Assembly: GCA_037200965.1 (NCBI GenBank)
Contig: JBBCGK010000001.1
Location: 352,001-416,000 of the forward strand
Length of the DNA: 64,000 nt
Source of the DNA: a bacterium
GTDB taxonomy: Bacteria; Patescibacteriota; Minisyncoccia; Phycocordibacterales; Phycocordibacteraceae
Direction: 5' to 3'
Shown here: positions 15,401 to 40,489 of the stretch, piece after piece
Numbering within the stretch: the first letter of the stretch is position 1
Layout of the letters: the number at the start of each line of letters is the position of its first letter
Position numbers and translations under genes: made by a program
Notes under the pieces: model-generated
What the model saw: only the letters and a program-made list of their open reading frames with translations
What the model was told of the DNA's origin: nothing
Database searches by the model: none

Positions 15401-18400
15401 TGTTCCCCTGCTTCCCGACCTGGATGCTCCCGGCAACGCTTAAAATCGGCGAGCCCACTTGCGTGGTATAGGGAGCAGTCGTCGTACCGATCATCGTAAA
15501 GCCGCCTCCCGTTGCAAGATAGGTATTGCCCGTCGAAGTAAATTGCGTTGAAGATGCGTTAGCGCTGAATTGTTGTAGTCCGGTCCATGTATTGGGGTTC
15601 GCGACATTGAGCGAGGCGATGACCGCGCCGGTCGTCGGGGTGATAGTGAGCGTGCCGTCGACGTTCGAAACGGAAGTGACGCCGGTCGAGGAGGTCAGAT
15701 AGTCGGTGCCGGGCACCGCGTTTACGATATATCCGCCCGTTGACGCCTTCAGAATGCCCGAGTTGCCGGTGATGGCGAGATTGGGTATCGAGATCGGGCC
15801 CGCGAAGGTCGAAGTCGCCGACGTCGTGGCGATAAAGAACCCGGCGGTCGCGGAGTTACCAAGAAGCGACGCGCCTTCGATCGAAAGGCGCGCGCCGGGC
15901 GTACTCGTCCCCACCCCCACATTCCCGTTCAATATCGTCCTGGCAATGCCCGTGTTTCCGAGCGTGGCGGAGTTCGAGCCGTTGCCGACGGCGTTGTACC
16001 CGATGACGATCTCGTTCGCGCCGCCGGCGGCAAGCGGGAACGCGCCGTAGCCGAGGTAGGTGGAGTCGCTTGCGGTCTGGTTGGGGGTCGTCCCGTCGGC
16101 GATAAATCGGCCGGCTCCCATGCCGATGGCGGTGTTGTGGAATCCGCTGACGTTGGTCTGGAGCGCCGCGAGCCCGACGGCGGTGTTGTAGTAGCCGGTG
16201 GTGGTGAGGGCGAGCGCGCCCGCGCCGATCGCGGTGTTGTCGAGGCCGCTCGTGTTTGAGAACAGCGCGGAGTATCCGACCGCGGTGTTCGAGTCGCCTC
16301 CGGAATTGGCGGCAAGGGCGTTGGTGCCGATTCCCACGTTCCTGATCGCGGCAAAGAGGTGCCCCGGCAGGATGTTAGCCGGCGCCGCGGCGAGCGCACC
16401 CTGGCCGATGGCGATGTTGTCCGTAATGGTCGAGGTGGCGGACATCCACGCGGCGGCGGAAGACGCGCCAAGCGCGAGCGAGCTGTTCGTCGTGCTCGCG
16501 TAGAGGACGGTGTTCCCCGCCTGCTTGTATCCCGAATACTGGTCGGTGTTGACGAAGCCGGCGACGTCGAGCGGATAGGAGGGCGAGGCGTTCCCGATCC
16601 CGAGCCGCTTGTTCGTCTCATCCCAGAAGAAGTTCCGGGGGGCGGCGGACTGGGTGAGCTTCGTGCCGTCGGAGAAGACAACGCCGCCGTTGTAGAAGGT
16701 GGTGGTGCCGGTGCCGCCGTTTGGCACCGTGAGCATGCTGGCGAGGTTGAGGGTGTTTGCGGTGAGGGTGGTGCCGTCGAAGGTGAGGTTCGCGGAGTCG
16801 GTGAGGAGGCCCGCGGTGGTGGTATAGGGGACGCGGTTGGTCGTGAGATAGGTGTTGTACAGGCCGGAGGCGACGGAAAGCTGGGTGGTGGAGGCGTTGG
16901 GGAAAACGGAGGCGGTGGTGGTGGTCGAAGTAAAATAGGCGGCGACGGCCTGGCCGGCGACGGAGAGTTTCGCATAGGGGGAGGTGGTGCCGATGCCGAC
17001 GTTCCCGGCGTTCGTCACGTTAAGGAACATGGTCGAGGTGGTACCGAACCGGTTGGTCGAGGACGCGACCGCGAGGATAAAGGGCGTTATGGATCCGAAC
17101 GGATTCTGGACCGCGAGATTCGCGAAGGGGGTGGTGGTGCCGATGCCGACATTGCCTTCGGTGTAGTAGATGCTTTTGGTGGAGGTGGCGGAGTGCTGGA
17201 AGAAGGTCATCGCGCCGCCCGTGACGACGTTGGTCGCGGCGATGCGGCCCATGATCTGGTTGCCGTTCTGGTTGTAGTGGCCGAGGTCGTCCTCGATGTA
17301 GTTGAGGGAGGGATAATCGAGGTCGCTCGCGAAGACGATCCGCGTGTTGAAGTCGTTCGCGGCGACGTCTTCCTGCGCCGCGCGGACCTGCGACTGGCCG
17401 AGGTCGGACATGGTGAGGAGCGTGCCCGACCGGAAGATGTAGAACGGCATGTTCGCGCCGAAGCGGGCGCGATAGTTGGCGATCATGGTCTTGAGCGCGG
17501 CTTCGTAGCTTGCCTGGGAGACGCCCGGGGTGTTGTCGTTGATCGCCACGCCGTCCGTTCCTCCCTGGCCCCACAAGACGCCCTTGAACACCGGTGTATA
17601 GCCGGCCTGCCGGAAGGCGCCAAGCGCCGCGGTGGTGGTGCCGACGGACCCGCTGAAGAACTCTCCGGTCGTGTCCCAGGTGCCTTTGCAGTTGCCGTAG
17701 CAGGCTGCGGCGACCTGGGACGTCGAGCCGCGCGCGCCGTTGACGAACGCGACCCGGCGGCCGGTGGCGCGATAGTAGGTGAGGGCGAAGGATGCCCAGG
17801 CGCCGTCGTCGTTTGAGGTCCCGGCAAGGGAATCTTCGTTGAGAATCTGTCCGTGCCAGTACTGCATGACCTGGCCCAGGGGCGCGACGGGGGCGGTCTC
17901 GGCGTCCCCGGGGCCGAGCATGTTCGACTGCCCCGCGACGAGGAACACATCGACCTGGTTCCCGAGGCCGAGGTTGAACCAGCCGTCCGTGATGGGATTG
18001 CCGGCTGCGGTCGTGGTGCCGATGCCGGCTTTCGCATAGAGGTATGTGCCGTCGAAGGCGAAGGTGCCGGGGCTTGCGGGGGTGGTGGTGGGGGTGGAAC
18101 CAAGAGCAAGGAAACCGCCCACGGACAGCGTTGCGGATGGCGTGGTGCTGCCGATACCGAGCCTGCCATTAGCGTTATCCCAGAAGAGCGCCGACGAGGA
18201 TGTATTGGGCGCTTGCGTCAATTTCGTACCGTCGCTGAAGACGACACCCCCGTTATAAAAGGTGGTAGTGCCGGTGCCGCCAAAAGCTGCCGAAAGGGTC
18301 GAGGTCGCGGACACAAGACCATTGATAGCCTGAAGCGGACCCGTGAGCGAACCAATGGTAAGCGATGGCGTCGTGACGGTGCCGGTCGCGGAGATGGTGG

Positions 18401-21400
18401 TGGTGCCGGTCGCGCCGACCGCGAGCGTGTTTGCGGAGAAGTTGGTGGTGGATGCGTTTTGGATATTGAACTGGCTTGGAATGGAAAGCGTGATGTCGCC
18501 GGTTGAAGCGGAAGCGGTGATTTGATTCGGAGTGCCCGTTAGTGAAAGGACTCCGTTGTTGCTGATCGTCACGGCGCCGGTCGCGCCCGAAAGCCCGATG
18601 CCGAGATTCCCTTGCAAAAGCGACGTGACGCCGGTGTTGGTGATGGTAAGCCCGCTTCCGATGACCGACTGCCCTGCCGTGACCGAGATGCCGGTACCGT
18701 TTGAGACCGTGCCGGTCGCAACGTTCGCAAAGGTATTCGGTCCCGAGAAGTACGGTATGTTCCCAACCACTGCCGGGGTGGAAGTCGAAAGGCCGTTGAA
18801 GCTTATGGTATTGATCAAACGAACGAGCGGCCACGCAAAGGCAAGAGGCACTTCTGGCGTTGCGCCGGAAGAGGCCGCAGTGATGAGACCCTTTCCGTTC
18901 ACTGTGATGCTGGCGTTTGTAAAGGAGCCGACGTTGGCATTCACCGTCGCGAGCGTCGCGGCTGCGGAGCCCGGGCCGCTTGCAGTGACGTCCCCGGTGA
19001 GCGCGGTAATGTAATTCCCTGCCGCCTGCTTTCCGTTGAACGTACTCCAGTCGGTCGATGAGAGGAGCCCGCGATTGCTTGCGGATGCGGTCGGAAGATT
19101 GAAGGTGACCGTATTGCCCGAACCCGTGATCGAGAAGTCGGTTCCGCTCGTTGACGAGGCGAGCGTGAGTGCGCCGGTGATCGCGGAACCGAACTGCGGC
19201 GTGACCGAGGTGATGCCGCTCGCGGAGGTGAGATAGTCGGTTCCCGCAACCGCAGGGACCACATAGCCTCCTGCGCCGGTCTTGAGAAGATTCCCCGAGG
19301 CGATGTTGGTGATGGCGAGGTTGAGAGTCGAGAGCGGGCCTGCGAACGTACTGGTTGCGCTGGTCGTCGCGAGAAAGAACCCGGCACTCGCGAAATTGCC
19401 AAGAAGCGATGCCCCCTCGACGGCAAGGCGCGCGCCCGGGGTCGTCGTGCCGATCCCCACATTCCCCGTATTTTTGATTACCAGCCGCTGAACCGGCGTT
19501 GCCGATCCGTCCGGGGTCGTGAAGAATGAGAGGCGTCCCGGAGCGTCGCCGCCGGTAGCCGTTGCCGCGTCCGCTTCCGCAAGTATCTGCGCGTAGAGCT
19601 GCGACGAACCCGTGCTGTCGACGCCATAGAAGGCAACGGTGCCCAGATCGTCGTTATTGCTTATCTCCGTGCCGGAACCGCGGTATTTCTGGAAGCTTTG
19701 GACCGGACCCGAACTGTTTGCCGCCTGATAATAGAGGCTCTGCATGCTGCTATTTGTCGTCGAATACAGGCGCTGCAGGTATCCGCCCGCACCGACCGTG
19801 CCGGAACTGCCGACGGTCATATCGCCGACAACCGCGAGCGTCGCGGCGGGAACGACGGTGCCGATGCCGACGCTCCCGCCAAGAGTCGCGAAATACGCGC
19901 TTGAAGTTGCCGTCAGCTGCGACGTGGAGGCGTTGCCGAAGAATTGCTGGAGCTGCGACCAGTTATTCGCGGTAGTCGTGCCAAACGCAAGCGACACATT
20001 GTTCACCAAACGGACGAGAGGATAGGAGAACGTAAGCGGGTTTTCGAAATCGGTGCCGGGAGCGGCGTTCGTTATGTATCCTCCGGCCGATGCCTTGAGA
20101 AGACCTGAGTTCCCGGTAATCGCGAGGTTCGGTATAGAAAGCGGGCCGGCAAAGGTGGAAGTCGCGGAGGTGGTTGCGACGAAGAAGCCGGCAGTGGCCG
20201 AATTGCCGAGGAGCGACGCGCCCTCGACGGAAAGCCTCGCCCCCGGACTCGTCGTACCGATGCCGATGTTCCCTCCCGATACCGCAGAGCCGGTGCCGGT
20301 CACGCCGGTGCCGTAGATGAGGTTGCCGATGTTGAGCTGTCCCGAGAGCGTCGCGGACGGGAGCGAGATGTTGGTGCCGATGAGGATGTTCTGGCTGCCG
20401 GTGGTGAGGTTCGCGACGGCGGTCGAGGAGGTGGCGGCGCCGATGAGGATGTTGCCGGCGCCGGTCGTGACGTTGTACCCGGCCTGGGAGCCGAGGAAGG
20501 TGTTGAAGTCGGAGGCGTCGCCCAGGGAGTGGCCCGTGCGATAGCCGATATAGACGCCGTTCCTGTTGTTGAAGGAGCTGCCGGTATCAAGGACGAGGTT
20601 GCCGTTGCCGGCTTCGTACCCGATCGCGACGTTGCCGCCTATGGTCGACGAGGCGAATTCGAGGGCGGCCTTGCCGATCGCGACGTTGTTCGGGCTGTAG
20701 TAGCTCGAATAGAGGGCGCCGTCGCCGACGGAGACGTTCGAGCTGCCGCTGATGTTGTTCCACATGCTCTTGTACCCGACGGCGGTGTTGTAGAAGCCGT
20801 TGGCGGTGAAGCGGAGCGCCTTGTACCCGACGGCGGTGTTCTCCTCGCCGGTGTTTGCGGCGCCCGAGACCGTCGTGGTGCCGCCAAGCGCGTAGTATCC
20901 GAAGGCGGCGTTGTACGAGCCGGTGGTGTATTCGCGCATGGCGCCCTCGCCCGCGGCGGTGTTGTACGAGCCGGCGGTGTTGGACAGGAGGGTTTGATAG
21001 CCGAGGGCGGTGTTGTAGAAGCCGTTGTTGTTCGCGTTGAGGGCGTACCGGCCGAAGGCGGTGCTGCGGACGTCGCTTGCGGTTGTGGTCGCGTCGCCCC
21101 CGGCATTGAGGCCGAAGATGGTGGTTTCATTCGTCGTCGACGCATACCCAAGCAGGCGGTTGGCGATTTTGTATCCCGAGTATTGATCCGTATTGATGAA
21201 GCCGGCGACATCAAGGGGATTCGTGGGCGACACCGTATTGATGCCAAGCCTTCCGGCCCCGTTATTCCAGAAGAGGGCGCTTGCGGAGGTGTTGGGTGCC
21301 TGCGTGAGCTTCGTGCCGTCGGAGAAGACAACGCCGCCATTGTAGAAGGTGGTGGTCGCGGTGCCGCCGGAGGAAAGAGGCAGGGCGTTCGTAAGAGCAA

Positions 21401-24400
21401 GCGTGTTTGCGGTAAGCGTGGTGCCATTAAAGGTGAGGTTCGCGGAGTCGGTCAGAAGGCCGTTGGTTGTCGTGTATGGGACGCGGTTCGTGGTGAGATA
21501 GGTGTTGTACAGGCCGGAGGCGACGGAGGCGAGCGTGGTCGAGGCGTTCGGGAAAGTGGAGGCAATCGTGGTAGTGGCGGTGAAGAAGCCTGCGATCGCT
21601 TGGTTTCCAAGCGACGAGGAACCTTCGACGGAGAGGCGGTAGGCGGGAGTGGTGGAAGCTATACCGACGAAACCGGAGTTCATAATGACGAGTGCGCGCG
21701 TGCCGCTGCCGCCGGATGTCGCACCGTTGACATCGAACTCAAAACCAGGAACTACCGCGCTGGTATCTTGGTTCGTGAAATAGAATACTTTGGAACCGAA
21801 TCCTTGAATCTGATGCGCGCTGCCGTTCGACTGGTTGATGGAGATATACTGGCCCGGGGCTGCATTGCGAGTGACGCGCAAACCTTCGTTTGCCGCAGTT
21901 GCGTTGATGTCAAGCGGGGCGCTTGGCGTAAAGGTGCGAATACCTACGTATCCGTTGCCGTTCGCGCTGCCGACATACAGCGACGGAGTCGAGCTTCCGG
22001 CGGCGCCGACGACGAATGCGGGAGTCGTGGACCCCATGCCGACCGAGAGCTGAGCGAATGGCGAGGAAGTGCCGATGCCGGCATTGCCTTGTACCAACAA
22101 CCCGCTCACGGGAGGCGCAATACCGTAGCCGATGTCTATGCCGGCGCCCGCGAGCATATGCAGATTCCCAAGAGAGCTAACAACGAGCGCGGTCGAGGTG
22201 GCAAAACCCGCGGTCGAGGTCGAGAGAGCGAAGACGGGAGTTGTGCCGCCTGCGGTACCCGCAAGGGAGAGTTTCGCGTACGGAGAGGTAGTGCCGATGC
22301 CGAGTCTGCTGTTCGTCTTATCGAAGTAGAGTCCTCCCTGAGCGGATGCCTGCGAGAGTGTGCCGAGACCGGAGTCGTAGAACGTGACGCCGCCGTTGTA
22401 GAAGGTGGTGGTGCCGGTGCCGCCGCGGTCGACGGTGAGCGTGCCGGTGGTGTCGGAAAGTACGATGCCAAGCGAAGACGTGGCGGCAGCCGCGAGCGCG
22501 CCGTTGTTCCCGTATATAATCCCCGAAAGCGTTCCGAGGACCGGGTTGTTCGTAAACGTTTGTGTGCCGCCCCAGGTATTGCTTGTCGTGGTGCCAAATG
22601 CAAGCGATACGTTGTTCGTCAAGCGGACCAGCGGGTACGAGAATGTAAGAGGATTTTCGAAATCGGTGCCGGGGACTGCATGCTGGAAGTAACCGCCAGC
22701 GCCGACCTTCACGAGGCCGCTTGCCAAGTCGGTGACGGCAAGATTGAGCGTCGAGAGGGGCCCCGCGAAGGTCGAAGTCGCGCTCGTGGTCGCGATGAAG
22801 AAGCCGGCAGTCGCGTAATTGCCGAGCAGTGAGTGGCCTTCGACGGAGAGGCGCGCGCCGGGCGTCGTCGTCCCGATGCCCACATTGTTATTGAAATATG
22901 ATTTGCCGTGCACCTCGAAGATGCTCACGAGCGAGGAAGTCGCACTGTCGCCAATGATGACAACATCTGACGTGTCGGTTGGATAGATCGCGAGACTGTC
23001 CGACGTGGTCGCCCATGCGCCCGCCCCGCCCCCTCCTCCAGTCGTCTGGTCGACTCCCCACTGCGGCAATCCGCCGCCCGACACCTTAAGCACCTGGCCG
23101 GAAACACCGAGGGGCAGTGCCGTGAGATCGCCATTGCCGTCGGCATAAAGCAGGTCGCCCGGGTTGTATGACGCGATGCCTGTGCCGCCGTTTGCCTGGC
23201 CGAGCACGTTGGTTACGTCCGGGCTTCCAAGATCGACAGAGCCGGTTGAAAGAACGCCGGCGGTCGCGCGCAGGATACCGGTCAGCGCAGTATTTACAGT
23301 ACCCAGATTCGCGAGGGTCGTTATGTTCGGGAGCGTCGTGGTCGCGGTAAGCCGGTTATCGAAGAGCGTATTACTCCAATACTTGTTGACGGATCCTTGC
23401 GCTAGGGCATCGGTCGTCGTGGCGCTGAAGAAGTTGTAAAAGGGTACGCCGAAATTAGTAAGGTGGGTGGCGTCGAGATAGTAGCTTCCCTCCTGCCCGT
23501 CAAACGTGCCGGTCCAGTTGCCGGAGGCATCGGCAACGTAGTCGGTGCCAGGAACGGCATTTGCTACATAGCCGCCGGCTGCTGCCTTGAGAAGGCCGTT
23601 GTTCCCGGTAATCGCAAGCTGCGAAACGGAAAGCGGACCGGCGAAGGTAGAGGTCGCGCTCGTAGTGGCGGTGTAGTAATCGGCGACGACTTGGCCGGCG
23701 ACGGACAGTTTGGCGTACGGCGATGTGGTGCCGATACCGACATTTCCTCCGGTTGTCGCAAGATAGGTATTGCCGGTAGAGGTGAACTGCGTCGAGCTTG
23801 CGCCTGCATTGAACTGCTGGAGCGCAGTCCAGGTGTTGGGGTTCGCGAGGTTGATTCCGAGATTCCCGCCGGAAACCTGGAGCGTCGCATCATTATTTAA
23901 CGAAAGTGCGTATGGCGATGAGCCGAGGACGACCGGATCGGATGAGGAGAACGACAAAGCGCCGGAAGTGGTGATCGTTGTGGTCGCTGCGCTTGAAAGC
24001 GCGCCATTGTTTCCATATACAAGGCCTGAAAGCGCGCCGAGGATCGGACTATTCGTAAAGGTTTGTGTGCCGCCCCAGGTATTGCTCGTCGTGGTACCGA
24101 AGGCAAGCGACACATTGTTCGCCGAACGCACGAGCGGATAGGAAAACGTGAGCGGGTTTTCGAAGTCGGTGCCCGGTACTGCAACGGAAAGGACGCCCGC
24201 CGCGGCTTTCAAAACTCCCGTGAGTGAGGTCGACACGGTACCGAGGTTCGCGAGGGTCGTGATGTTCGGGAGCGTCGTGGTCGCGGTAAGCCGGTTATCG
24301 AAGAGCGTATTACTCCAGTATTTGTTAGTGGCACCTTCGGCAAGCGCGTCGGTCGTGGTCGCATGGAAGTAGGTGTAGAAAGAGGCGTCGAAAGAAGAGG

Positions 24401-26999
24401 CGTCGAATTTGGCGTTAAGCGCATTTTGCAGATCAGTCTGATCCGAGAGAATCCCGGTAATGCTCCCCCACACCGCACTGTTGATGCCAAGCGACGAGGT
24501 CGCGACATATTCCCAATTCCCGTTCGCATCGGAAAACAAGAGCTTGTTGGCGGTCGGAACGGTCGAGGTACCGGTGCCCCCGCGGTTGATAGCGAGCGTT
24601 CCGGTCGTATCGGAAAGCGCGATGCCAAGCGACGAGGTCGCAAGCGCGGCCGGAACGGCGCTTCCTCCCGTTTGGTTTGCGAGGACCGAGTTTGCCGCGA
24701 TCGGCGCGAGGCCGATCTGCACGTTCGTGCCGCCGACTTGGTATCCGAGCGCGCCAGACGAGACGGCAAGACCGTTCGTGACGCCAAGCGTCGAAGTTGC
24801 CGCCGTCGCGAGCGTGCCGTTATTACCGTAGACGAGACCGGAGAGGGCGCCAAGGATGGGAGCATTGGTGAACGTCTGGACAGGGCCCCAGGTATTCGCG
24901 GTCGTTGTGCCAAATGCGAGCGTGATGTTGTTAACGGCCCGCACGAGCGGATATGCGAAGGTGAGAGGATTCTCGAAATCAACGCCCGGTACCGCCGCCG
25001 AAAGAGCTCCTGCGGTTGCCTTTAAGATTCCTGTAAGCGACGTCTTGATCGTACCGAGGTTCGCGAGCGTTGTGATGTTCGGGAGTGTCGTGGTCGCGGA
25101 GAGGCGATTATCAAACCGCGTATTCGTCCAGTACAAATTGTTCGTCCCCTCATCAAGTCCGTCGGTCGTCGTCGCGTACCAATCGGCGAGCGAGAGTTTC
25201 GCATCAAGGGCGCTTTGCAAGTCGGTCTGGTTCGAAAGCGTGCCAATGATGTTCCCCCATGAAGGATTGCCGCCCGCAGCGATCCCGAGCGACGAGGTCG
25301 CGACAAGATCGTACCCGCCCGCGCCGTCGCCAAGAAGGACCTGGCCGTATGCGGGCGCACTCGCGATACCCGTACCTCCGTTGTCTATATCGAGTATGCC
25401 GCTCAGCGTGAGCGTACCGCTTGAAGTGACCGGACCGCCGGCAAATGAGAATCCGGTCGTTCCACCGGAAGCGTCGACGGAAGTTACCGACCCCGAACCT
25501 CCCCCCGATTGCACGACGGTTGTACCGCCCCCGCGCGCCCCGCTTCGCACCGCGGAGTCGATGTTCTGGTACAGCAACGCTCGCAAACCGCCGATCGCGG
25601 CGTCCACATAGGCAATTGATGCGCCGCCTTCCGGAGCAATGTATTGATTCGTCACGTACGTGGGACCTGTCTGATGGATGACCAGGGGAACATCTACCGC
25701 CCCCGTGCTTGTCGCGCTTGTAACGACATTTCCGGATGACACATAGGCGACTTGAGGCAGAATAACGGTGGGCGGGGTCAGAATATAAGCGATTGTTTCC
25801 GCTGTCCGATCAAAGAGGCTGCGGATAGTCTCGTAGGTAAAAAGCGCAATGTATTCTGGCTCCGTAAGCGGCGCGCCAGCATACGCGGCCGCGGGGAGGG
25901 CCTGCTCGCTCCCGGAAGCTCCAAAGACCCGGGGAATGAAGGATTCGATACGCATCGAAGCTCCGGTATCAAAAGCGAGTGCGGTATTTTTTGCTCCGAT
26001 CATCCGCTCGCCAATCGCGACTTCCTTTTTCGCTACATACGCAACTACGCGGGGAGACGCGTCGCTCCAAGCGTAGAGCGATCGCTCATAAGCGCCGAGA
26101 AGCGCGGGCAGCGCATTGCCGGTTCGCATGCCCAACATGTCTCCAAGCGCGTACACCGAACGGAAAATCGCGCGCGGTATTTCAAGTGCCGCGGTCAGAG
26201 ATGCGGGAGTGGAAGTTCGATCCGAAACGGACAGGCGCGGAGAAAAGTTCCCTTTCGTTTCTTCCGCAAACGCTTCCGGCGGCGTCCACTCCAATGCAAC
26301 GCTTGTCCACGGCGAATCTTGCGCTGGCACAATTTGCATCTGAGTCTCCCGTGCGGCGATCGTCGCGTTCGTAAGCGGAAGTAACGCTCCGTGTGCAAGG
26401 TCGTCGGTCGACTGCGCGATCGACTCTTTGAGCGCAACGCGCGTCGCGGACGTGCGGCTCTCCGTTTCAAGCGCATGCCTTGCGATCGAGGCGATGGTGG
26501 CGGCGCTCGCTGAGCGTACGACACCCGCGGATTCCGTTACCATCGCGAGAGAATGATCTGCAATCGATCCAAGAACATCGGCACGAGCAAGTGCCGCGCC
26601 GCCCGCCACTATCGCAACGGCAACCGCGAGGGAAACGGCATGGCCTGAAAATGCATATGAAAAGTATGGAGCTGGTACTGCCCGTGGCGCTTTTGACGCT
26701 GCTTCGGAGCTTGCGGGTACCGCGTCGGGTGTTGTCGGCGAAGCCGGCTTTTTTACAAACTCCGCATACTCCTTTCCGCGCGACTCAGCCAACGCGCGAG
26801 CGCGGGCCGCATTGCGGTCGGCTTGGATTTTTATAAAACGTTCAAGCGATGAACGCTCAACGAGCCACGTGCGCCCAACTCGCACTCCATCGATAGACTT
26901 TCCTTTGCAGAGTCTCGCAATATAGTCAGGACTATATCCGGATAAATCAGCGGCGACTTTCGTCGATATCAAGTTTTCTTTAAGGAGGTAAGGATCCAT
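12486..26999 (-). CDS. giant membrane-anchored surface protein (4837 aa): cytoplasmic HTH + TM + tail-fibre/YadA-like repeats + SGNH esterase + peptidase-S74 chaperone domain + DUF5011-like Ig domain
   Basis: Uninterrupted 14.5-kb ORF with an ATG at 26999. Residues 10-57 match the excisionase/MerR HTH_17 pattern, followed by a K/R-rich linker and one hydrophobic helix (FSGHAVSLAVAVAIVAGGAALA). The remainder is Gly/Thr/Ser/Ala-rich with many recurring modules (GIGTTSPYAKLSV..., ...FENPLTFSYPLVR..., NTAVGY-type head repeats). Defined domains are listed separately. Confidence 0.85.
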   Translation of the reverse strand: MDPYLLKENLISTKVAADLSGYSPDYIARLCKGKSIDGVRVGRTWLVERSSLERFIKIQADRNAARARALAESRGKEYAEFVKKPASPTTPDAVPASSEAASKAPRAVPAPYFSYAFSGHAVSLAVAVAIVAGGAALARADVLGSIADHSLAMVTESAGVVRSASAATIASIARHALETESRTSATRVALKESIAQSTDDLAHGALLPLTNATIAARETQMQIVPAQDSPWTSVALEWTPPEAFAEETKGNFSPRLSVSDRTSTPASLTAALEIPRAIFRSVYALGDMLGMRTGNALPALLGAYERSLYAWSDASPRVVAYVAKKEVAIGERMIGAKNTALAFDTGASMRIESFIPRVFGASGSEQALPAAAYAGAPLTEPEYIALFTYETIRSLFDRTAETIAYILTPPTVILPQVAYVSSGNVVTSATSTGAVDVPLVIHQTGPTYVTNQYIAPEGGASIAYVDAAIGGLRALLYQNIDSAVRSGARGGGTTVVQSGGGSGSVTSVDASGGTTGFSFAGGPVTSSGTLTLSGILDIDNGGTGIASAPAYGQVLLGDGAGGYDLVATSSLGIAAGGNPSWGNIIGTLSNQTDLQSALDAKLSLADWYATTTDGLDEGTNNLYWTNTRFDNRLSATTTLPNITTLANLGTIKTSLTGILKATAGALSAAVPGVDFENPLTFAYPLVRAVNNITLAFGTTTANTWGPVQTFTNAPILGALSGLVYGNNGTLATAATSTLGVTNGLAVSSGALGYQVGGTNVQIGLAPIAANSVLANQTGGSAVPAALATSSLGIALSDTTGTLAINRGGTGTSTVPTANKLLFSDANGNWEYVATSSLGINSAVWGSITGILSDQTDLQNALNAKFDASSFDASFYTYFHATTTDALAEGATNKYWSNTLFDNRLTATTTLPNITTLANLGTVSTSLTGVLKAAAGVLSVAVPGTDFENPLTFSYPLVRSANNVSLAFGTTTSNTWGGTQTFTNSPILGALSGLVYGNNGALSSAATTTITTSGALSFSSSDPVVLGSSPYALSLNNDATLQVSGGNLGINLANPNTWTALQQFNAGASSTQFTSTGNTYLATTGGNVGIGTTSPYAKLSVAGQVVADYYTATTSATSTFAGPLSVSQLAITGNNGLLKAAAGGYVANAVPGTDYVADASGNWTGTFDGQEGSYYLDATHLTNFGVPFYNFFSATTTDALAQGSVNKYWSNTLFDNRLTATTTLPNITTLANLGTVNTALTGILRATAGVLSTGSVDLGSPDVTNVLGQANGGTGIASYNPGDLLYADGNGDLTALPLGVSGQVLKVSGGGLPQWGVDQTTGGGGGAGAWATTSDSLAIYPTDTSDVVIIGDSATSSLVSIFEVHGKSYFNNNVGIGTTTPGARLSVEGHSLLGNYATAGFFIATTSATSTFAGPLSTLNLAVTDLASGLVKVGAGGYFQHAVPGTDFENPLTFSYPLVRLTNNVSLAFGTTTSNTWGGTQTFTNNPVLGTLSGIIYGNNGALAAAATSSLGIVLSDTTGTLTVDRGGTGTTTFYNGGVTFYDSGLGTLSQASAQGGLYFDKTNSRLGIGTTSPYAKLSLAGTAGGTTPVFALSTSTAGFATSTALVVSSLGNLHMLAGAGIDIGYGIAPPVSGLLVQGNAGIGTSSPFAQLSVGMGSTTPAFVVGAAGSSTPSLYVGSANGNGYVGIRTFTPSAPLDINATAANEGLRVTRNAAPGQYISINQSNGSAHQIQGFGSKVFYFTNQDTSAVVPGFEFDVNGATSGGSGTRALVIMNSGFVGIASTTPAYRLSVEGSSSLGNQAIAGFFTATTTIASTFPNASTTLASVASGLYNTYLTTNRVPYTTTNGLLTDSANLTFNGTTLTANTLALTNALPLSSGGTATTTFYNGGVVFSDGTKLTQAPNTSASALFWNNGAGRLGINTVSPTNPLDVAGFINTDQYSGYKIANRLLGYASTTNETTIFGLNAGGDATTTASDVRSTAFGRYALNANNNGFYNTALGYQTLLSNTAGSYNTAAGEGAMREYTTGSYNAAFGYYALGGTTTVSGAANTGEENTAVGYKALRFTANGFYNTAVGYKSMWNNISGSSNVSVGDGALYSSYYSPNNVAIGKAALEFASSTIGGNVAIGYEAGNGNLVLDTGSSFNNRNGVYIGYRTGHSLGDASDFNTFLGSQAGYNVTTGAGNILIGAATSSTAVANLTTGSQNILIGTNISLPSATLSGQLNIGNLIYGTGVTGTGSAVSGGNIGIGTTSPGARLSVEGASLLGNSATAGFFVATTSATSTFAGPLSIPNLAITGNSGLLKASAGGYITNAAPGTDFENPLTFSYPLVRLVNNVSLAFGTTTANNWSQLQQFFGNASTSQLTATSSAYFATLGGSVGIGTVVPAATLAVVGDMTVGSSGTVGAGGYLQRLYSTTNSSMQSLYYQAANSSGPVQSFQKYRGSGTEISNNDDLGTVAFYGVDSTGSSQLYAQILAEADAATATGGDAPGRLSFFTTPDGSATPVQRLVIKNTGNVGIGTTTPGARLAVEGASLLGNFASAGFFLATTSATSTFAGPLSTLNLAITNIASGNLLKTGAGGYVVPAVAGTDYLTSASGITSVTPQFGSAITGALTLASSTSGTDFSITGSGNTVTFNLPTASASNRGLLSSTDWSTFNGKQAAGNYITALTGDVTASGPGSAAATLATVNANVGSFTNASITVNGKGLITAASSGATPEVPLAFAWPLVRLINTISFNGLSTSTPAVVGNIPYFSGPNTFANVATGTVSNGTGISVTAGQSVIGSGLTITNTGVTSLLQGNLGIGLSGATGAVTISNNGVLSLTGTPNQITASASTGDITLSIPSQFNIQNASTTNFSANTLAVGATGTTTISATGTVTTPSLTIGSLTGPLQAINGLVSATSTLSAAFGGTGTTTFYNGGVVFSDGTKLTQAPNTSSSALFWDNANGRLGIGSTTPSATLSVGGFLALGSTPTTTPASPGTFAFDGTYLYAKAGIGTTTAAGNPITDGWFNLGLGNQVDVFLVAGQSNMLGPGDAETAPVAPLGQVMQYWHGQILNEDSLAGTSNDDGAWASFALTYYRATGRRVAFVNGARGSTSQVAAACYGNCKGTWDTTGEFFSGSVGTTTAALGAFRQAGYTPVFKGVLWGQGGTDGVAINDNTPGVSQASYEAALKTMIANYRARFGANMPFYIFRSGTLLTMSDLGQSQVRAAQEDVAANDFNTRIVFASDLDYPSLNYIEDDLGHYNQNGNQIMGRIAATNVVTGGAMTFFQHSATSTKSIYYTEGNVGIGTTTPFANLAVQNPFGSITPFILAVASSTNRFGTTSTMFLNVTNAGNVGIGTTSPYAKLSVAGQAVAAYFTSTTTTASVFPNASTTQLSVASGLYNTYLTTNRVPYTTTAGLLTDSANLTFDGTTLTANTLNLASMLTVPNGGTGTTTFYNGGVVFSDGTKLTQSAAPRNFFWDETNKRLGIGNASPSYPLDVAGFVNTDQYSGYKQAGNTVLYASTTNSSLALGASSAAAWMSATSTITDNIAIGQGALAAAPANILPGHLFAAIRNVGIGTNALAANSGGDSNTAVGYSALFSNTSGLDNTAIGAGALALTTTGYYNTAVGLAALQTNVSGFHNTAIGMGAGRFIADGTTPNQTASDSTYLGYGAFPLAAGGANEIVIGYNAVGNGSNSATLGNTGIARTILNGNVGVGTSTPGARLSIEGASLLGNSATAGFFIATTSATSTFAGPISIPNLAITGNSGILKASTGGYIVNAVPGTDYLTSSTGVTSVSNVDGTLTITPTTGAVIASLNVANPNTWTGLQQFSANASSTQFTSTGNTYLATGGGFTMIGTTTAPYTTQVGSPILSVAGSIQVGKQGNNSNGIDFIRTDGTSGTAYARWVGSSNSVFGISNSSSSGVLRLLVDASNGNSIQLYGKSNVEIARADVATNNFAIGSTSPFARLSVNGASGGTIPLFVIASSTTATASTTALQVSALGNLHMLGGTGIDIGYGIAPPTNGLLVQGNVGIGTTSPYSLLSISNSVSTPANTPLFTIASTTAGTATSTFMTVLANGNVGIGTTSPANSLEVHGNLYADNGGAVTYSVIGTSNVKGTAPGTNDTLFVGTTSANINMRGLFVVVNASSTPATATIQGLNTQVVWSGLANNVSGGAQGGGLRNRITVSNTSVGYGVNQMSGLTIQNAVSGTLATSTNASNYHSEAPSVDTGNLITNFRGFWQRNTSIGAGTLTNSIGVNVESLANGTNNTELLLGTATAPSGNYAIYQADAYTNYFAGKVGIASSTPGALLAVHANNGALYPGNNLFAIGSSTASATTTLFKVDNAGNATFSGPGGTCVINGSGACTSDSRLKKNIEAITGEEALSKLSLISGVTYNWRDPLLSQGQQVGIIAQDVAKAFPQLTGTVETQLNGVTGTYYTVNYAGLVSPLISAVNALNARTGFIRNAAASSTVPALAVDAAGNIGIRTGATNRALSVSGDIGISGTVYADGFALPAGSFASVAANLGFASTSLPSVVLTEDASGIDLYKLATYSLGSLQSISAELLAIGARMDSLEDRIARLEDGSIGMDAAPGTFASSTLASALEGFGAFVREGIAQFGTLVADRFVAAADSAGNSSAGSGMILAGNTAVEIENVYAAPSDKIFVTFTGAVNGGWYLADKKNGSFRIRLEKAQQSDVSFDYFIVGTKGQVATSTAAAVISEEDEAGDSSPANWTPETDIPPPPTGNNGGAGASSPDTLAPVITLAGDAETHLAQGAVWEDPGASASDDRDGDLTPDITKDGAVDTATPGSYTVTYRVADAAGNEAHASRAVTVIAPPVSPAPEEPPAPGPEAEPAP
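12550..12810 (-). other. C-terminal DUF5011/Ig-like domain followed by a Pro-rich tail
   Basis: LAPVITLAGDAETHLAQGAVWEDPGASASDDRDGDLTPDITKDGAVDTATPGSYTVTYRVADAAGNEAHASRAVTV resembles DUF5011-type bacterial Ig-like domains. Ends ...APPVSPAPEEPPAPGPEAEPAP. Confidence 0.5.
13680..13995 (-). other. peptidase S74 intramolecular-chaperone (auto-processing) domain of the giant protein
   Basis: CTSDSRLKKNIEAITGEEALSKLSLISGVTYNWRD...QQVGIIAQDVAKAFPQLT...YTVNYAGLVSPLISAVNALNAR matches the SDxRLKxNI...GfIAQ...Y..L consensus of phage tail-spike/endosialidase chaperone domains. Confidence 0.7.
17223..17954 (-). other. embedded SGNH-hydrolase / sialate-O-acetylesterase (SASA)-like domain in the giant protein
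   Basis: FLVAGQSNMLGPGD (GQSNM nucleophile block I), VLWGQGGTDG (block III-like) and DDLGHY (DxxH catalytic block V), in the order and spacing of SASA/CE-family esterases. Confidence 0.65.
26820..26999 (-). other. N-terminal excisionase/MerR-type helix-turn-helix module of the giant protein
   Basis: LISTKVAADLSGYSPDYIARLCKGKSIDGVRVGRTWLVERSSLERFI fits the HTH_17 pattern (helix, GYS turn, recognition helix, then the wing GVRVGRxW). Homologous to the N-terminus of the 27330-28169 product. Confidence 0.6.
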
Positions 27000-27329
27000 G
27001 TCGGATAACCGAATTAACTACAGTTTATATGGACTTTCCGGAATAAACTCCAAATTGTATGTGGATAAGGAAAATAAGGTTTTCTGAATTACCGTATCCG
27101 CAATCACTAACAAAATGGTCGGGGCAAGTTGACGATAAATTGAGCACGCGAAGCATGGTTGGTATGAAAATTGTACCGACTTCTGCAACGAAAATTGCGT
27201 ATTTTAGAGGCCGAAAAAAATATAACCTTCGCCTACAGCGTAGTTTTGTAAGTTTTCTGCAATTAAATCACCTTAAACAACCGCATCAAACCAGTAATGC
27301 AACCTCGCTTATACGAGATATAATACCCT
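27000..27329. promoter_or_regulatory. 330-bp AT-rich (about 37% GC) non-coding region immediately upstream of the giant gene
   Basis: No ORF of 60 aa or more. Composition contrasts sharply with flanking 60-65% GC coding DNA. Likely promoter/regulatory region; individual promoter boxes not resolved. Confidence 0.45.
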
Positions 27330-28169
27330 TTATTTGTTAGTCTTTTCGTACTGCTCTGCTCCGTTTAGAAACTGTATGAGGTTCGCCTGTAAGCCATCGT
27401 TAGCTGCTATAAAATCGAGTTTGCCTGTACCGATTATCGCTATCAGTACCGCAATACCGGCTGCGGTTAGCATGAGCGAGCTCAGTACATAATGCCCTTT
27501 CTTAACCTCCTTACGCTTTGCTGGAGCAAGCTCGTGTCGTGTTTCCGAAACAATGTATGTGTCCACGGGCTCAAAATCGTTTCCTGAGGAGATTTGCTCT
27601 TCGTTCCGAGAGATATGTAAGGTTATCGATGTAGCCTCTTCTATAGGCTCTGGCGCGGCTACAGGCCCTTCTTCAAAGGTTTCCGGTTCTGAAATAGGGA
27701 CGTTTTGCGATTCCTGCGGCCCGACTCGATTAATAAACCAGTCTTGCCAGGCTGACTGTATGTCCTGAAGCGCGCTTTGAGTCTCTGCTGCGGGAATTTC
27801 ACGTACTTCTGTCTGCTCTGATTCTTCTGAAGAGAGGAGGTTTACGCCGGGACTTTCGGTTGGAACTTCAAAAATACTCGGTACTTCCTCACTACTATAG
27901 CGAGGTGAGCCCCAAGCGGGACTTGCAGCTTTTTCCAAACCGCTTTGTTCCTCCTTAGGTCCTTGTGCACCACTTGAAACCTCTGCCTGCTTCCCAAAAC
28001 GATGCTCGCGAATGGCGGATTCAAGAACGTACCAGCTGCGTCCAACAAGCGTTGCCGTCACCCTCCCTTCACGGGCAAGTTGACCGACATAATCCTTGGC
28101 ATATCCCGTAATTTCCGACGCTCGCTTAGACGAGATAAACGTCTGATTTCCTATAAGTAACTCATTCAT
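27330..28169 (-). CDS. HTH-domain membrane protein (279 aa): N-terminal excisionase/MerR-type HTH, acidic disordered linker, C-terminal TM helix; paralogous to the giant-protein N-terminus
   Basis: ATG at 28169 gives MNELLIGNQTFISSKRASEITGYAKDYVGQLAREGRVTATLVGRSWYVLESAIREH. This shares ISxKxA...GYxxDY...L...G...VGRxWxV with the giant protein. TM at GHYVLSSLMLTAAGIAVLIAIIGTG. About 50% GC, lower than its neighbours. Confidence 0.7.
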   Translation of the reverse strand: MNELLIGNQTFISSKRASEITGYAKDYVGQLAREGRVTATLVGRSWYVLESAIREHRFGKQAEVSSGAQGPKEEQSGLEKAASPAWGSPRYSSEEVPSIFEVPTESPGVNLLSSEESEQTEVREIPAAETQSALQDIQSAWQDWFINRVGPQESQNVPISEPETFEEGPVAAPEPIEEATSITLHISRNEEQISSGNDFEPVDTYIVSETRHELAPAKRKEVKKGHYVLSSLMLTAAGIAVLIAIIGTGKLDFIAANDGLQANLIQFLNGAEQYEKTNK

Positions 28170-28257
28170 GCACTTAGTATATAGGTATCTCGTCCCGTAT
28201 AGAAGAGGTTGTACACAAGCACCGAAAAAGCTGAAAATCCATCCGAATTTAGAGTCT

Positions 28258-29679: not shown

Positions 29680-29695
29680 TAACCCCAATCTAGCA

Positions 29696-30676: not shown

Positions 30677-30700
30677 ATGGATTCACCCTAACACACTCTT

Positions 30701-30728
30701 TTCACCCACGCTCGTATCATGGTATAAT
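30701..30728 (+). promoter_or_regulatory. candidate promoter for mntA/hepT: -35 TTCACC, 16-bp spacer, extended -10 TGgTATAAT; start codon 7 nt downstream (leaderless)
   Basis: tgg-TATAAT at 30720-30728; ATG at 30735. Confidence 0.4.
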
Positions 30729-30734
30729 GTATCT

Positions 30735-31022
30735 ATGCAAACGATTGACTCAATAAAAAAGAAGGCGGCGGCGGTGCTGCCTGATTATGGTGTAACGGAG
30801 GCATACTTATTCGGTTCCCTCGCGCGAGGTGACGGACGTGAAGATAGCGACGTCGATATTCTCGTACGATTCGATGGTGTACGCGGACTTTTCGCATTTG
30901 TTGCGGCTAAACTCGCGATGGAGGAAGCGCTTGGAGGCTGCTCCGTCGATCTGGTGCAGATAGACGCGCTTCGTCCGGAGTTCCGGGCCGATATAGAGCG
31001 CGAGAAGATACGGCTGTTCTAA
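30735..31022 (+). CDS. mntA: MntA-type nucleotidyltransferase antitoxin (type VII toxin-antitoxin)
   Basis: MQTIDSIKKK...; the motif GSLARGDGREDSDVDILV corresponds to the minimal nucleotidyltransferase GS...DxD signature. Immediately upstream of the HepT-like gene. Confidence 0.75.
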   Translation: MQTIDSIKKKAAAVLPDYGVTEAYLFGSLARGDGREDSDVDILVRFDGVRGLFAFVAAKLAMEEALGGCSVDLVQIDALRPEFRADIEREKIRLF

Positions 31023-31026
31023 ACCT

Positions 31027-34071: not shown

Positions 34072-34083
34072 GAATCGACACTA

Positions 34084-34112
34084 TAACGCGAAAAGCCTCC
34101 TTGTGGGAGGCT
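34084..34112. terminator. perfect hairpin GAAAAGCCTCC-ttgtg-GGAGGCTTTTC between a small Lys-rich ORF and secA
   Basis: 11-bp stem with a TTTTC tail on both strands. Confidence 0.4.
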
Positions 34113-37607: not shown

Positions 37608-37622
37608 ATTGCAAAAACTATA

Positions 37623-40465: not shown

Positions 40466-40489
40466 GAAGAAGGCGGGTATACTTCCCTC

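Follow-up and report, generated by a model that had tools for sequence, protein, structure and literature searches.

Why should the gene for a giant surface protein be directly preceded, on the same strand, by a small gene whose product starts with the same DNA-binding type of head and is likewise anchored in the membrane? A large part of bacterial diversity falls to the Patescibacteria (candidate phyla radiation, CPR), which live attached to other cells. To our knowledge almost nothing is known about how the production of their giant surface proteins is carried out or controlled, and these organisms have few recognisable regulators. We address the question from one such gene pair, found on the minus strand of a 64-kb stretch of DNA (the window), and from 80 other species-level genomes fetched by means of the small gene, 78 loci of which enter most of the motif and GC counts. 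No description of the small-giant pair was found in the literature searched.

Architecture of the two proteins

The small gene is genuine, and its product is a membrane-anchored protein whose head is of the DNA-binding type (Table 1). Its ORF (minus strand) opens with the ATG at 28169, since the longer GTG-initiated ORF, up to 28313, runs into gatB (28258-29688) and the homologues all begin with M(D/N)EL. The family counts 1,228 matches, mostly of 250-330 aa, those listed being mostly full-length, and the closest relative outside the source genome is 48% identical. The head is followed by a linker of 155 aa with 31 D/E against 8 K/R (net charge -23) and mostly low pLDDT, within which the two conserved motifs W..P.Y..E and D(M/I)QSAWxEWF are specific to the small protein and absent from the giant one. 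The TM helix is preceded by a basic patch, KRKEVKK, so that the predicted topology places the N terminus inside and the head in the cytoplasm. An earlier note on this DNA, made from the letters alone, had described an acidic linker, one TM helix and about 27 outside residues; all of this holds except the tail, which has 32. It had also placed the two genes in tandem on one strand with a 330-bp AT-rich spacer between them, as is indeed the case.

The giant protein has its head, linker and TM helix in the same order, and the first TM segment lies at about aa 95-200, mostly 100-145, in 70 of 78 giant orthologues. Its ectodomain has features of adhesins and tail fibres, and the distal parts are mosaic and variable. 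The second giant ORF of the window (47547-55556) was considered as a relative and rejected, being an unrelated RHS/YD-repeat protein that lacks the head.

Table 1. Features of the small and giant genes and of the sequences around them (window coordinates).
Feature	Position	Strand	Details and evidence
-35/-10 elements, putative small-gene promoter	28176..28204	-	-35 TTCTAT (28199-28204), 17-nt spacer ACGGGACGAGATACCTA, -10 TATACT (28176-28181); 78 upstream regions
TTGTGTACA, window version of TT(A/G)T(N)CACA element	28210..28218	-	~50 nt before small ATG; resemblance only
Small gene	27330..28169	-	279 aa: cytoplasmic wHTH, acidic linker, single TM helix, short outside tail; ORF, family, AF2 model, composition
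Small-protein wHTH head	27993..28169	-	aa 1-59, pLDDT 93-96; signature SSKxAxxxTGYAKDYVGQLxREGRVxAxLVGRxWYVLExxxxEHRFG
Linker motif W..P.Y..E	27888..27914	-	aa 86-94; W86, Y91, E94 (near-)invariant in 20- and 86-sequence alignments
Linker motif D(M/I)QSAWxEWF	27735..27764	-	aa 136-145, within predicted helix 127-148; alignments, AF2
Small-protein TM helix	27429..27494	-	aa 226-247; AF2 helix 226-247, hydropathy 228-246, charges
Small-protein outside tail	27333..27428	-	32 aa, conserved G..D....FLxG; alignment, hydropathy, composition
TATCTCGTATAAGCGAGG, element just past small stop codon	27303..27320	-	degenerate copy of conserved TATCTCGTCTCG; 78 loci
AT-rich spacer between small and giant genes	27000..27329	-	330 bp, 38% GC; median 584 bp in 78 loci
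TTATCCACA, one copy	27060..27068	-	-69 from giant ATG, identical to textbook DnaA-box consensus; 78 loci
CCGGAAA (consensus CCGAAAT)	27035..27041	-	left arm of inverted repeat with TTCGG around -10 box; alignment
Giant-promoter -10 box	27022..27027	-	TAAACT (consensus TAnnAT); alignment
Conserved leader TTAATTCGGTTATCCGAC	27000..27017	-	abuts giant ATG, without Shine-Dalgarno; alignment
Giant gene	12486..26999	-	4,837 aa: wHTH, linker, TM helix, ~4,700 aa outside; ORF, Pfam, hydropathy
Giant-protein wHTH head	26832..26975	-	aa 9-56; HTH_17 26.0 bits vs cut-off 27, excisionase profiles, TraN E=5e-6
Giant-protein TM helix	26586..26642	-	aa 120-138; hydropathy
SASA/SGNH carbohydrate esterase domain	17226..17954	-	giant aa 3016-3258; Pfam PF03629, E=8.8e-11
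Peptidase_S74 (tail-fibre-type intramolecular chaperone)	13791..13958	-	giant aa 4348-4403; Pfam PF13884, E=7.3e-13
Bacterial surface Ig-like domain	12558..12773	-	giant aa 4743-4814; Pfam PF16403, E=3.1e-22

The two heads and their DNA-binding relatives

The N-terminal module suspected to be common to both proteins is borne out by pairwise as well as profile alignment: BLASTP finds 33% identity over 60 aa (E=4e-9), and hhalign, comparing the 61-sequence profile of one orthologue group with that of the other, returns a probability of 99.2% and E=8.2e-20 over 49 columns. The identity of the core had been put at about 40% over 45 aa, which is too high, as 15 of the 45 positions are identical (about 33%). 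The similarity is confined to the head of about 50 aa. Mean column identity is 80% among the small heads and 64% among the giant heads, and the two are distinct, separately conserved orthologue groups.

Both heads have the excisionase/BldC/MerR type of winged helix-turn-helix (wHTH) fold, about 50 residues with a helix-turn-helix and a beta-hairpin wing. Their profile scores are below threshold, both for Pfam HTH_17 (PF12728, cut-off 27; small 15.1 bits, giant 26.0, or 22.2 with the full-length protein) and for the NCBIfam excisionase family (TIGR01764, cut-off 28.8; small 12.9 bits, giant 21.3). A precomputed PF12728 match is present on some homologues. The sole solved protein with significant sequence similarity is TraN of the Enterococcus plasmid pIP501, reached by the giant-head profile with E=5e-6 and 1.1e-5. 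The small-family profile and sequence gave only chance matches among solved structures and did not reach TraN, so the small head is tied to TraN only via the giant head, to which it is homologous.

As a repressor, TraN acts at specific sites (PMC6158623, PMC10877727). It contacts DNA through R23/N24/Q28, H82 and the wing residues G100-K101. In the giant-profile alignment these contacts map to K25/D26/Q30 and G43-R44 of the small family, where D26, Q30, G43 and R44 are invariant and K25 nearly so (20- to 86-sequence alignments), and to S23/D24/R28 and G41-R42 of the giant family. The paralogous heads thus differ at two of the three recognition-helix positions, which is consistent with two separate sets of DNA motifs. 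The best fold and sequence matches are DNA binders, and the fold matches also include CbpM, small terminases and RacA. On this basis we infer that the heads bind double-stranded DNA, although proteins, too, can be ligands of wHTH domains with this fold, which counts against such a reading.

The head is present in 11,275 representative proteins, many of them membrane proteins, as found in an exhaustive representative search, which was required for the true length range to show; when the giant-head profile was run against a word index, the matches were all short fragments of up to 113 aa. Such a spread could mean that its role is general rather than locus-specific. Many different ectodomains occur behind the same head, many HTH-TM proteins exist in the phylum, and some relatives (L047, L075, L028) carry two heads in tandem.

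Conservation and origin of the gene pair

The small and giant genes form a conserved two-gene module, hitherto uncharacterised, in at least 80 related species of candidate phyla bacteria. The block secA-obg-gatB-small is found in 80/80 other genomes, with secA three genes upstream of the small gene in 69 of the 80 loci. Downstream of the small gene a same-strand HTH-TM gene, usually the giant one, follows in the window and in 79/80 other genomes; in the remaining one (L045) the contig ends before the downstream gene. Co-occurrence of the pair in related genomes is what the earlier note had proposed as a check. The whole secA-obg-gatB-small-giant block is frozen in the clade, so that a functional link finds little support in adjacency by itself.

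The small gene had been singled out for its GC content of about 50%, and it does differ from its surroundings, with 48.8% GC against about 60% and a GC3 of 0.44 against 0.63-0.79 in the neighbouring genes. The low-GC zone reaches 180 nt into the giant gene, with a GC3 of 0.43 over this part, a point that the earlier note had not mentioned. The composition could suggest a recent foreign insertion, a decoy, or a donor cassette that diversifies the giant gene, the last two having been entertained before in the form of a template or decoy. This explanation is already contradicted by the data and we give it practically no credence. The small gene is below its upstream 5 kb in GC in 76/78 related loci, the same offset as in the window, the spacer is below its flank in 78/78, and the synteny is fixed in 80/80 other genomes. 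As low GC is family-wide and the block synteny frozen, composition is not evidence of a separate origin. The 48% identity of the nearest relative outside the genome, the restriction of similarity to the head and the absence of recombination-type repeats linking both genes also speak against it, as do the separate orthologue groups of the heads and the small-specific linker motifs that the giant protein lacks. Recent duplication and horizontal acquisition are rejected on the same grounds (family-wide low GC, fixed synteny, separate head orthologue groups).

Conserved non-coding elements at both genes

Both genes are flanked by conserved non-coding sequences, parts of which are ordinary promoter elements. 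A scan with consensus sigma-70 promoter and terminator models returned nothing useful in the region. The spacer of the putative small-gene promoter, ACGGGACGAGATACCTA, contains a conserved motif, CGAGnCGAGATA, and a promoter of this type is unique in the 64-kb window. The -10 box ends 6 nt before the ATG, a leaderless geometry, which we considered as a speciality of the small gene and rejected, as a TAnnnT box 6-8 nt before the ATG is found at many genes of the window. Past the small stop codon lies an element whose conserved form, TATCTCGTCTCG, is the reverse complement of the small promoter motif, so that inverted CGAGnCGAGATA copies (12-mers) bracket the small gene. Its 10-nt core occurs with at most one mismatch within 60 nt past the stop (mostly 4-25 nt) in 60 of 78 loci. 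RNAalifold predicts no consensus structure for this element.

At the giant gene the conserved motif TTAATTCGGnTATCCGAC immediately adjoins the ATG. The leader reads as two adjacent 9-bp units, TTAATTCGG and ATATCCGAC, each AT-rich then CG-rich, and its consensus core TCGGATATCCGA is a palindrome. It is highly specific to its position: 1.24 Mb of loci contain 67 matches with up to two mismatches, 64 of which are at giant-type gene starts, extra paralogues included. The BldC site is AATTXXXX(C), for example AATTCGGTC (PMC5859096), and by sequence the leader units resemble this consensus. Judging from the position of the -10 box, transcription would start near 27015. The box is surrounded by inverted CCGAA/TTCGG arms, in which 78.7% of the alignment cells are paired with weak covariation at one pair, and in one locus (L049) a full-length inverted copy of the leader flanks it.

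A structured RNA leader or riboswitch was considered and discarded, with no Rfam match in 26500-28700. RNAalifold predicts no pairs in the giant leader, a 4-bp hairpin is conserved without covariation, and the CCGAA left arm lies upstream of the likely transcription start. The lack of conserved RNA structure together with the hairpin that does not covary favours a role at the level of DNA.

Further upstream, TTATCCACA matches the DnaA-box consensus TTATNCACA exactly and is found twice in 64 kb, against 0.58 copies expected, also occurring upstream of the secA region. A single box per spacer is present in 62/78 loci, usually at -64 to -87 and in one orientation, and it is about 12 times enriched there relative to the rest of the loci. 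It may be a site for DnaA or for another regulator. A replication origin in the AT-rich spacer does not fit, as there is one promoter-proximal box per spacer, no box cluster and no switch of gene strand.

Proposed mechanism and alternatives

What do these proteins do together? Our best explanation, to which we give somewhat less than even confidence, is that both are membrane-tethered, site-specific DNA-binding proteins that control or tether the giant gene by acting at the locus that encodes them. The small protein is a bitopic protein with an Xis/BldC/MerR-type wHTH on an acidic disordered leash of about 155 aa and almost nothing outside, and the giant protein follows this plan too, its head being paralogous and about 4,700 of its residues extracellular. 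The small-type head would bind CGAGnCGAGATA in its own promoter spacer and the inverted copy past its own stop, while the sites of the giant-type head would be the AATTCGG/ATCCGAC units where the giant transcript begins and, beyond the -10 box, the CCGAA arm in inverted orientation; which motif belongs to which head is a guess. Points against this explanation are the sub-threshold family scores of the small head, whose profile reaches no solved structure by sequence, and the ordinary promoter elements contained in the conserved sequences. The outcome would be feedback control of a very costly gene. Because both proteins are seated in the membrane, the locus could also be held there, at the site where the giant chain is exported. 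Among the roles floated in the earlier note, regulator and partner thus stay plausible and have gained from the DNA-binding fold and the operator-like motifs, unlike template and decoy.

The main alternative is that the heads bind a cytoplasmic protein or each other instead of DNA, and that the small protein positions, chaperones or competes with the giant one. The partner could be a protein of the cytoskeleton or of division, a chaperone, or else SecA or the translocon, much as the HTH of RodZ binds MreB. One head type is carried by two membrane proteins encoded side by side and by thousands of other, different membrane proteins, the two motifs in the small linker have the look of docking peptides, the fold matches include wHTH domains of CbpM and of small terminases, and secA is a near neighbour in most loci. 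We nevertheless consider this unlikely, given that the best matches in fold and sequence are DNA binders, that the positions corresponding to TraN contacts, G-R wing included, are the most conserved here, that the gene-specific non-coding motifs at both genes would be left unexplained, and that neither RodZ-type (HTH_25, DUF4115) nor other partner domains were detected with Pfam. Alternatively, the small protein could be a housekeeping factor that ties many DNA sites to the membrane, in a RacA- or transertion-like manner, its adjacency to the giant gene being inherited synteny. The extreme conservation of the small head, the presence of its gene inside the housekeeping block in each of the 80 other genomes that it served to fetch, the long, flexible, acidic leash, RacA among the fold matches and the many other HTH-TM proteins in the phylum would all fit. 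However, a paralogous head opens the giant gene at every testable locus, which would not follow from plain synteny, the conserved motifs cluster at these two genes, and 1.24 Mb of loci contain practically no further copies of the leader motif, just as there is one CGAGnCGAGATA-type promoter in the window, so that a general tether seems rather improbable to us.

A contact sensor akin to ToxR is a special case of our best explanation, not a true alternative to it. The giant ectodomain would sense attachment to the host and alter DNA binding by its head, the small protein being a ligand-blind co-regulator or antagonist in mixed oligomers on DNA. The topology is that of ToxR, CadC and TcpP, the ectodomain combines SASA esterase, Peptidase_S74 and Ig-like domains with mosaic variable distal parts, heads of the BldC and Xis type oligomerise head-to-tail on repeats, and many relatives present different ectodomains behind the same head. 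The signalling part is speculative, as a single helix would have to relay from a fibre of 4,700 aa, and the head is not of the OmpR/PhoB type; we regard this version as quite improbable.

Relation to known systems

ToxR, CadC and TcpP act on DNA while anchored in the membrane, and their order of parts, a DNA-binding domain in the cytoplasm at the N terminus, then a single TM helix and a C-terminal part outside, is also the layout predicted here, in 78/78 loci. They have an OmpR/PhoB-type domain and a folded periplasmic sensor, in contrast to the Xis/MerR-type fold of our heads, and outside the small protein has 32 residues only, while the giant ectodomain is a fibre-like adhesin. BldC from Streptomyces, Pukovnik Xis, Tn916 Xis and RdfS are minimal MerR-like wHTH proteins like the heads here, at a sequence identity of only 14-15%. 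These are free cytoplasmic proteins of 55-70 aa, whereas here the head is not stand-alone but continues into a linker and TM helix, and in the giant protein into a 4,700-aa ectodomain as well. TraN (AM32) is the repressor of an operon for conjugative type IV secretion. Conserved residues here line up with its DNA-contact positions and the double-headed relatives resemble its internal dimer, but TraN is a soluble two-headed monomer encoded in a plasmid transfer operon, while the window proteins have one head each, are membrane-anchored and belong to a chromosomal housekeeping block. RacA from Bacillus subtilis, a MerR-like wHTH protein, anchors particular chromosomal sites at the cell envelope. 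In RodZ an HTH at the N terminus is followed by a TM helix and a small domain outside; the XRE-type HTH_25 and the periplasmic DUF4115 domain of RodZ have no Pfam match here at E up to 1.

It is conceivable, though doubtful, that surface proteins of Paceibacteria and related Patescibacteria, adhesin fibres of several thousand residues among them, carry a cytoplasmic, site-specific DNA-binding head, that the small paralogue and the giant protein bind operators at their own locus, that the state of the surface, be it export, assembly or host contact of the fibre, is thereby conveyed directly to transcription and that the giant gene is held at the membrane for co-translational export. If true, organisms with very few classical regulators would possess a one-component surface-to-DNA circuit of a new kind. 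The testable question that the locus poses is whether a giant adhesin acts back, via a cytoplasmic DNA-binding head, on the transcription of its own gene or on its targeting to the membrane. Since the head occurs in about 11,000 representative proteins, an answer would extend to the annotation of a large family that is so far uncharacterised. The analysis defines transcription start sites, predicted at the A of the small ATG (28169) and near 27015 for the giant gene, and, as candidate operators, TTAATTCGGATATCCGAC, CCGAAAT-N23-AATTCGG, TATCTCGTCTCG, TAGTTAATTCGGATATCCGACATG, CGAGACGAGATA in the small promoter, and TATCTCGTCTCG-N5-ACGAGATA.

A conserved gene pair

A one-genome-per-species scan confirmed 229 loci of the small gene, the best 80 of which were analysed, and in 77 of these (78 of 81 with the window) an HMM of the head, the N-terminal wHTH module common to the small and giant proteins, finds a downstream ORF on the same strand that starts with this module. 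Two further loci (L052 and L057) show a giant-type leader with an MDP... start right at the edge of the contig, and in L045 the contig end comes before any downstream head ORF could show. The spacers between the two genes measure 101 to 1,781 bp (median 584); 67 of the downstream head ORFs extend past the fetched DNA, many after at least 3,000 codons, and the complete ones encode 249–4,837 aa. Upstream, gatB (80/80), obg (77/80) and secA (69/80) lie on the same strand at constant distances. Co-occurrence in related genomes, which the earlier note had proposed as a check, is borne out by these counts, and the small and giant genes are an old, conserved pair. In the window the secA–obg spacing, elsewhere conserved, is broken by an MNT-HepT-like toxin-antitoxin pair on the opposite strand (30585–31377, plus), recognised from Pfam PF01909, PF18765 and PF01934 in public gene calls.

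The description of the small gene as compositionally distinct, and of a 330-bp AT-rich spacer between tandem genes, holds: the gene has 48.8% GC and a GC3 of 0.44 against 0.63–0.79 in neighbouring genes, the spacer has 38% GC and both genes are on the minus strand. GC3 is also low (0.43) over the opening 180 nt of the giant ORF. The trough (26820–28260) spans the end of gatB, the small gene, the spacer and these 180 nt, and it recurs among related genomes regardless of their overall GC. In 76 of 78 loci the small gene is poorer in GC than the 5 kb upstream of it (by 4.6 points on average), and the spacer is so in all 78 (by 16 points). Low GC is therefore a property of the family, so a recent foreign origin of the small gene is ruled out.

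Conserved promoters and flanking motifs

The main new result is the conserved non-coding sequence at both genes (Table). When spacers were compared all-against-all at the nucleotide level, the last 30–70 nt before the giant ATG proved conserved even where the small proteins are only ~35% identical overall. The consensus reads TTATCC(A/C)CA, 20–30 nt (usually ~21), CCGAAAT, ~8 nt, TAnnAT, 4 nt, the leader TTAATTCGGnTATCCGAC and ATG. Given normal promoter geometry, the giant transcript probably starts near 27015, which would leave an untranslated leader of ~16 nt that has no Shine-Dalgarno sequence. The leader can be read as two 9-bp units, each AT-rich and then CG-rich, its consensus core TCGGATATCCGA is palindromic, and the −10 box is flanked by an inverted repeat, with CCGAA on its upstream side and TTCGG on the other.

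Coordinates of the gene pair and of its conserved elements in the window
Feature	Position	Strand	Basis
Small gene	27330–28169	minus	ATG ORF, 279 aa
Giant gene	12486–26999	minus	ORF, 4,837 aa
Giant promoter, TTATCC(A/C)CA element	27060–27068	minus	aligned consensus
Giant promoter, CCGAAAT element	27035–27041	minus	aligned consensus
Giant promoter, TAnnAT (−10 box)	27022–27027	minus	aligned consensus
Leader TTAATTCGGnTATCCGAC abutting the giant ATG	27000–27017	minus	aligned consensus
Small-gene promoter	28176–28204	minus	conserved TTCnAT/CGAGnCGAGATA/TATACT
Degenerate copy of TATCTCGTCTCG	27303–27320	minus	motif comparison

The leader motif is almost exclusive to the start of the giant gene, with 64 of its 67 matches in 1.24 Mb (at ≤2 mismatches) at giant starts, 61 at the expected start and 3 at re-set or additional ones. 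The other three are a tandem duplicate 260 nt upstream (L041:11060), a full 17–18-bp inverted copy with the −10 box between the copies (L049:11401) and one probable chance match. In 11 loci (L009, L010, L017, L020, L025, L029, L030, L037, L038, L039 and L065) no ATG directly adjoins the motif; nine of them have a TTG start 9–10 nt past it, and L037 and L038 an ATG 16–18 nt past it. Extra giant-type paralogues in L027 and L070 have a similar promoter. BldC sites are built of AATTXXXX(C) units, e.g. AATTCGGTC and TCCGAATT (PMC5859096), and the likeness of the leader units to these appears striking, as a resemblance only.

Before the giant gene TTATCCACA, the textbook DnaA-box consensus, is a single box at a fixed position. 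In about 40 of the 80 loci it is also found ahead of the secA region, followed there by a conserved promoter-like sequence of its own; the box may therefore be a site for DnaA or some other global factor and not for the small and giant heads, and the element ahead of secA may be an upstream promoter element that is under DnaA control or shared in some other way. In the window a second exact copy (34371–34379, minus) directly follows the stop codon of ORF 34384–35424 and precedes a promoter-like stretch (T-rich, tTCACACAAAA, GCGCGCAATAAT-like, TAGAACACATTCGCG-like); a tiny Lys-rich ORF (MAKKMKKAAKKTSKKSKAKKPAKRKAAKRRK; 34153–34248, minus), a terminator-like hairpin and secA come next.

The small-gene promoter is conserved as strongly as that of the giant gene, with TTCnAT, a 17-nt spacer holding CGAGnCGAGATA, and TATACT exactly 6 nt before the ATG. 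A TAnnnT box 6–8 nt before the ATG, with no Shine-Dalgarno sequence, precedes many window genes (e.g. at 2793–2810, 9635–9650, 34072–34092, 37608–37628 and 40470–40489), which points to frequent use of leaderless mRNAs by this genome; we do not regard this geometry as special to the small gene, as so many others share it. The reverse complement TATCTCGTCTCG stands just past the small-gene stop codon, usually by 4–25 nt and often followed by ACGAGA, and its 10-nt core is found at ≤1 mismatch within 60 nt of the stop in 60 of 78 loci; an inverted 12-mer pair thus brackets the small gene. The core TCTCGnCTCG has a fixed third occurrence in more than 60 of the 80 loci, ~1.8 kb upstream of the small-gene start (~2.65 kb before its stop) and absent from the window, which by gene distances falls inside obg and is probably a coding constraint.

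For the conserved elements there was no match in Rfam, and RNAalifold gave no consensus structure for the giant leader or the post-stop element of the small gene. A 4-bp leader hairpin is conserved with no covariation; for CCGAA/TTCGG, 78.7% of the pairing is intact and the covariation, which is weak, falls on essentially one pair, while the left arm sits 5' of the inferred transcription start. A conserved RNA structure is therefore not favoured, and we read the flanking and leader motifs as DNA-level elements, that is, promoter parts and putative protein-binding sites.

Homology and architecture of the two proteins

The N termini of the small and giant proteins are 33% identical over 60 aa (BLASTP E=4e-9), and hhalign matches profiles of the two heads, each from a 61-sequence alignment of one orthologue group from other genomes, over 49 columns with a probability of 99.2% (E=8.2e-20), so that at the sequence level their homology is secure. 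The earlier note was right to call them paralogous but overestimated the identity (about 40% over 45 aa), since 15 of 45 positions of the head core are identical. In an AlphaFold2 model of the small protein, with 86 homologues as input, the head (residues 1–59, pLDDT 93–96) folds as strand-strand-helix-helix-strand-strand-helix. It scores under the curated cut-offs of the HTH_17 and excisionase-family profiles, PHROGs gives weak excisionase matches for the giant head, and the giant-head profile matches the sequence of TraN of pIP501 (E=5e-6); the head belongs, below threshold, to the excisionase/BldC/MerR wHTH fold, and is related to TraN in sequence.

TraN is a site-specific DNA-binding repressor with contacts in the recognition helices (R23/N24/Q28 and H82/R86) and the wings (G47-G48 and G100-K101) (PMC6158623; PMC10877727). 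At the aligned positions the giant family has S23/D24/R28 and the VGRxW G-R, and the small family K25/D26/Q30 and G43-R44, of which D26, Q30, G43 and R44 are invariant and K25 is nearly so; judged by this alignment, the positions equivalent to TraN DNA contacts are the best conserved ones in the heads. As the paralogues are unlike at two of three recognition-helix positions, the predicted DNA-binding heads may have different target sequences.

All homologues of the small protein begin M(D/N)EL, which places its start at the ATG at 28169; a longer GTG-initiated ORF reaching 28313 runs into gatB (28258–29688). The acidic, disordered linker and single TM helix reported earlier are confirmed: residues 60–214 hold 31 D/E and 8 K/R (net −23) and the linker is mostly disordered in the model, with one helix at 127–148. 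The basic patch KRKEVKK ahead of the TM helix (226–247) implies that the N terminus is inside, and the outside tail has 32 residues instead of about 27. Database relatives number 1,228 (E≤1e-3). Of these the 120 best are nearly all 250–330 aa, most cover 97–100% of the query, and their sources are MAGs of Paceibacterota, Parcubacteria and Kaiserbacteria. Among the matches listed, the nearest beyond this genome is 48% identical. The family keeps the head signature SSKxAxxxTGYAKDYVGQLCREGRVxAxLVGRxWYVLExxxxEHRFG, two short linker motifs (W..P.Y..E and DMQSAWxEWF), a conserved TM helix with IGTG, and FLxG in the tail.

The giant protein has its TM segment at residues 120–138 and, in the window, an outside part with a SASA esterase, a tail-fibre-type Peptidase_S74 chaperone domain and an Ig-like domain. 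Its orthologues have the first 150–540 residues in common and patchy, mosaic distal similarity, the pattern to be expected of a surface fibre that varies. The Peptidase_S74 domain, an intramolecular chaperone, stands at the C terminus of phage tail fibres and removes itself by cleavage. Here (13791–13958, minus) it is followed by ~430 more residues (12486–13790), the Ig-like domain included, an internal place that prompts one to ask whether the giant protein undergoes processing there.

In an exhaustive profile search the head matched 11,275 representative proteins with E≤1e-3, of which 4,403 have E≤1e-10. The best 150 range from 86 to 7,214 aa, many with two tandem heads, and six examples all combine one or more heads with a charged linker, a TM helix and an ectodomain. 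Two tandem heads are also seen in some giant-type genes (L047:7990, L075:11149, L028:12682 and L005:20004) and in a separate abundant family of about 330–400 aa (P0224, P0232 and P0243 among the two-head examples), whose heads are followed by a charged linker, a TM helix and a ~100-aa conserved ectodomain (SFSD..V.PD..G..G.ITPVF....G.DF.YVMVP).

A possible role at their own locus

The earlier observation is well founded and now much broader than first reported. Homology, architecture, fold, conserved pairing and conserved motifs are established here; we infer DNA binding, the assignment of heads to motifs and the outcome. As the likeliest of the readings considered, we tentatively propose that the small and giant proteins may be membrane-tethered, site-specific DNA-binding proteins acting at their own locus. 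In this scheme the CGAGnCGAGATA pair would be the target of the small-type head, and the AATTCGG/ATCCGA(C) sites around the promoter of the giant gene and the start of its transcript that of the giant-type head. This would exert feedback on a very costly gene and, as by-product or purpose, hold the locus at the membrane, where the 4,837-residue chain must be exported.

That the heads are instead protein-protein adaptors seems unlikely, and that the proteins serve as a general nucleoid-membrane tether somewhat more so. A ToxR-like contact sensor would be a special case of action at the own locus and is a little less probable again. ToxR-type bitopic regulators have the same order of parts, but the DNA-binding fold here is unlike theirs and the small protein has no sensor domain. 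The small gene as foreign insert, decoy or template we consider highly improbable. Neither this pair nor any giant surface protein that has a cytoplasmic wHTH head turned up in the literature we searched; a preprint on giant bacterial genes concerns other phyla and other architectures.

Region 46336–55556 (minus) of the window holds a second giant ORF (47547–55556; 2,669 aa), which has no HTH head and whose product resembles a polymorphic-toxin-type protein of the RHS/YD-repeat kind, with FG-GAP/VCBS-like repeats. On the 3' side of this ORF is a low-GC island (39–42% GC) with small TM-rich ORFs (47333–47542, 46974–47309 and 46336–46869) that look like immunity or orphan cassettes.
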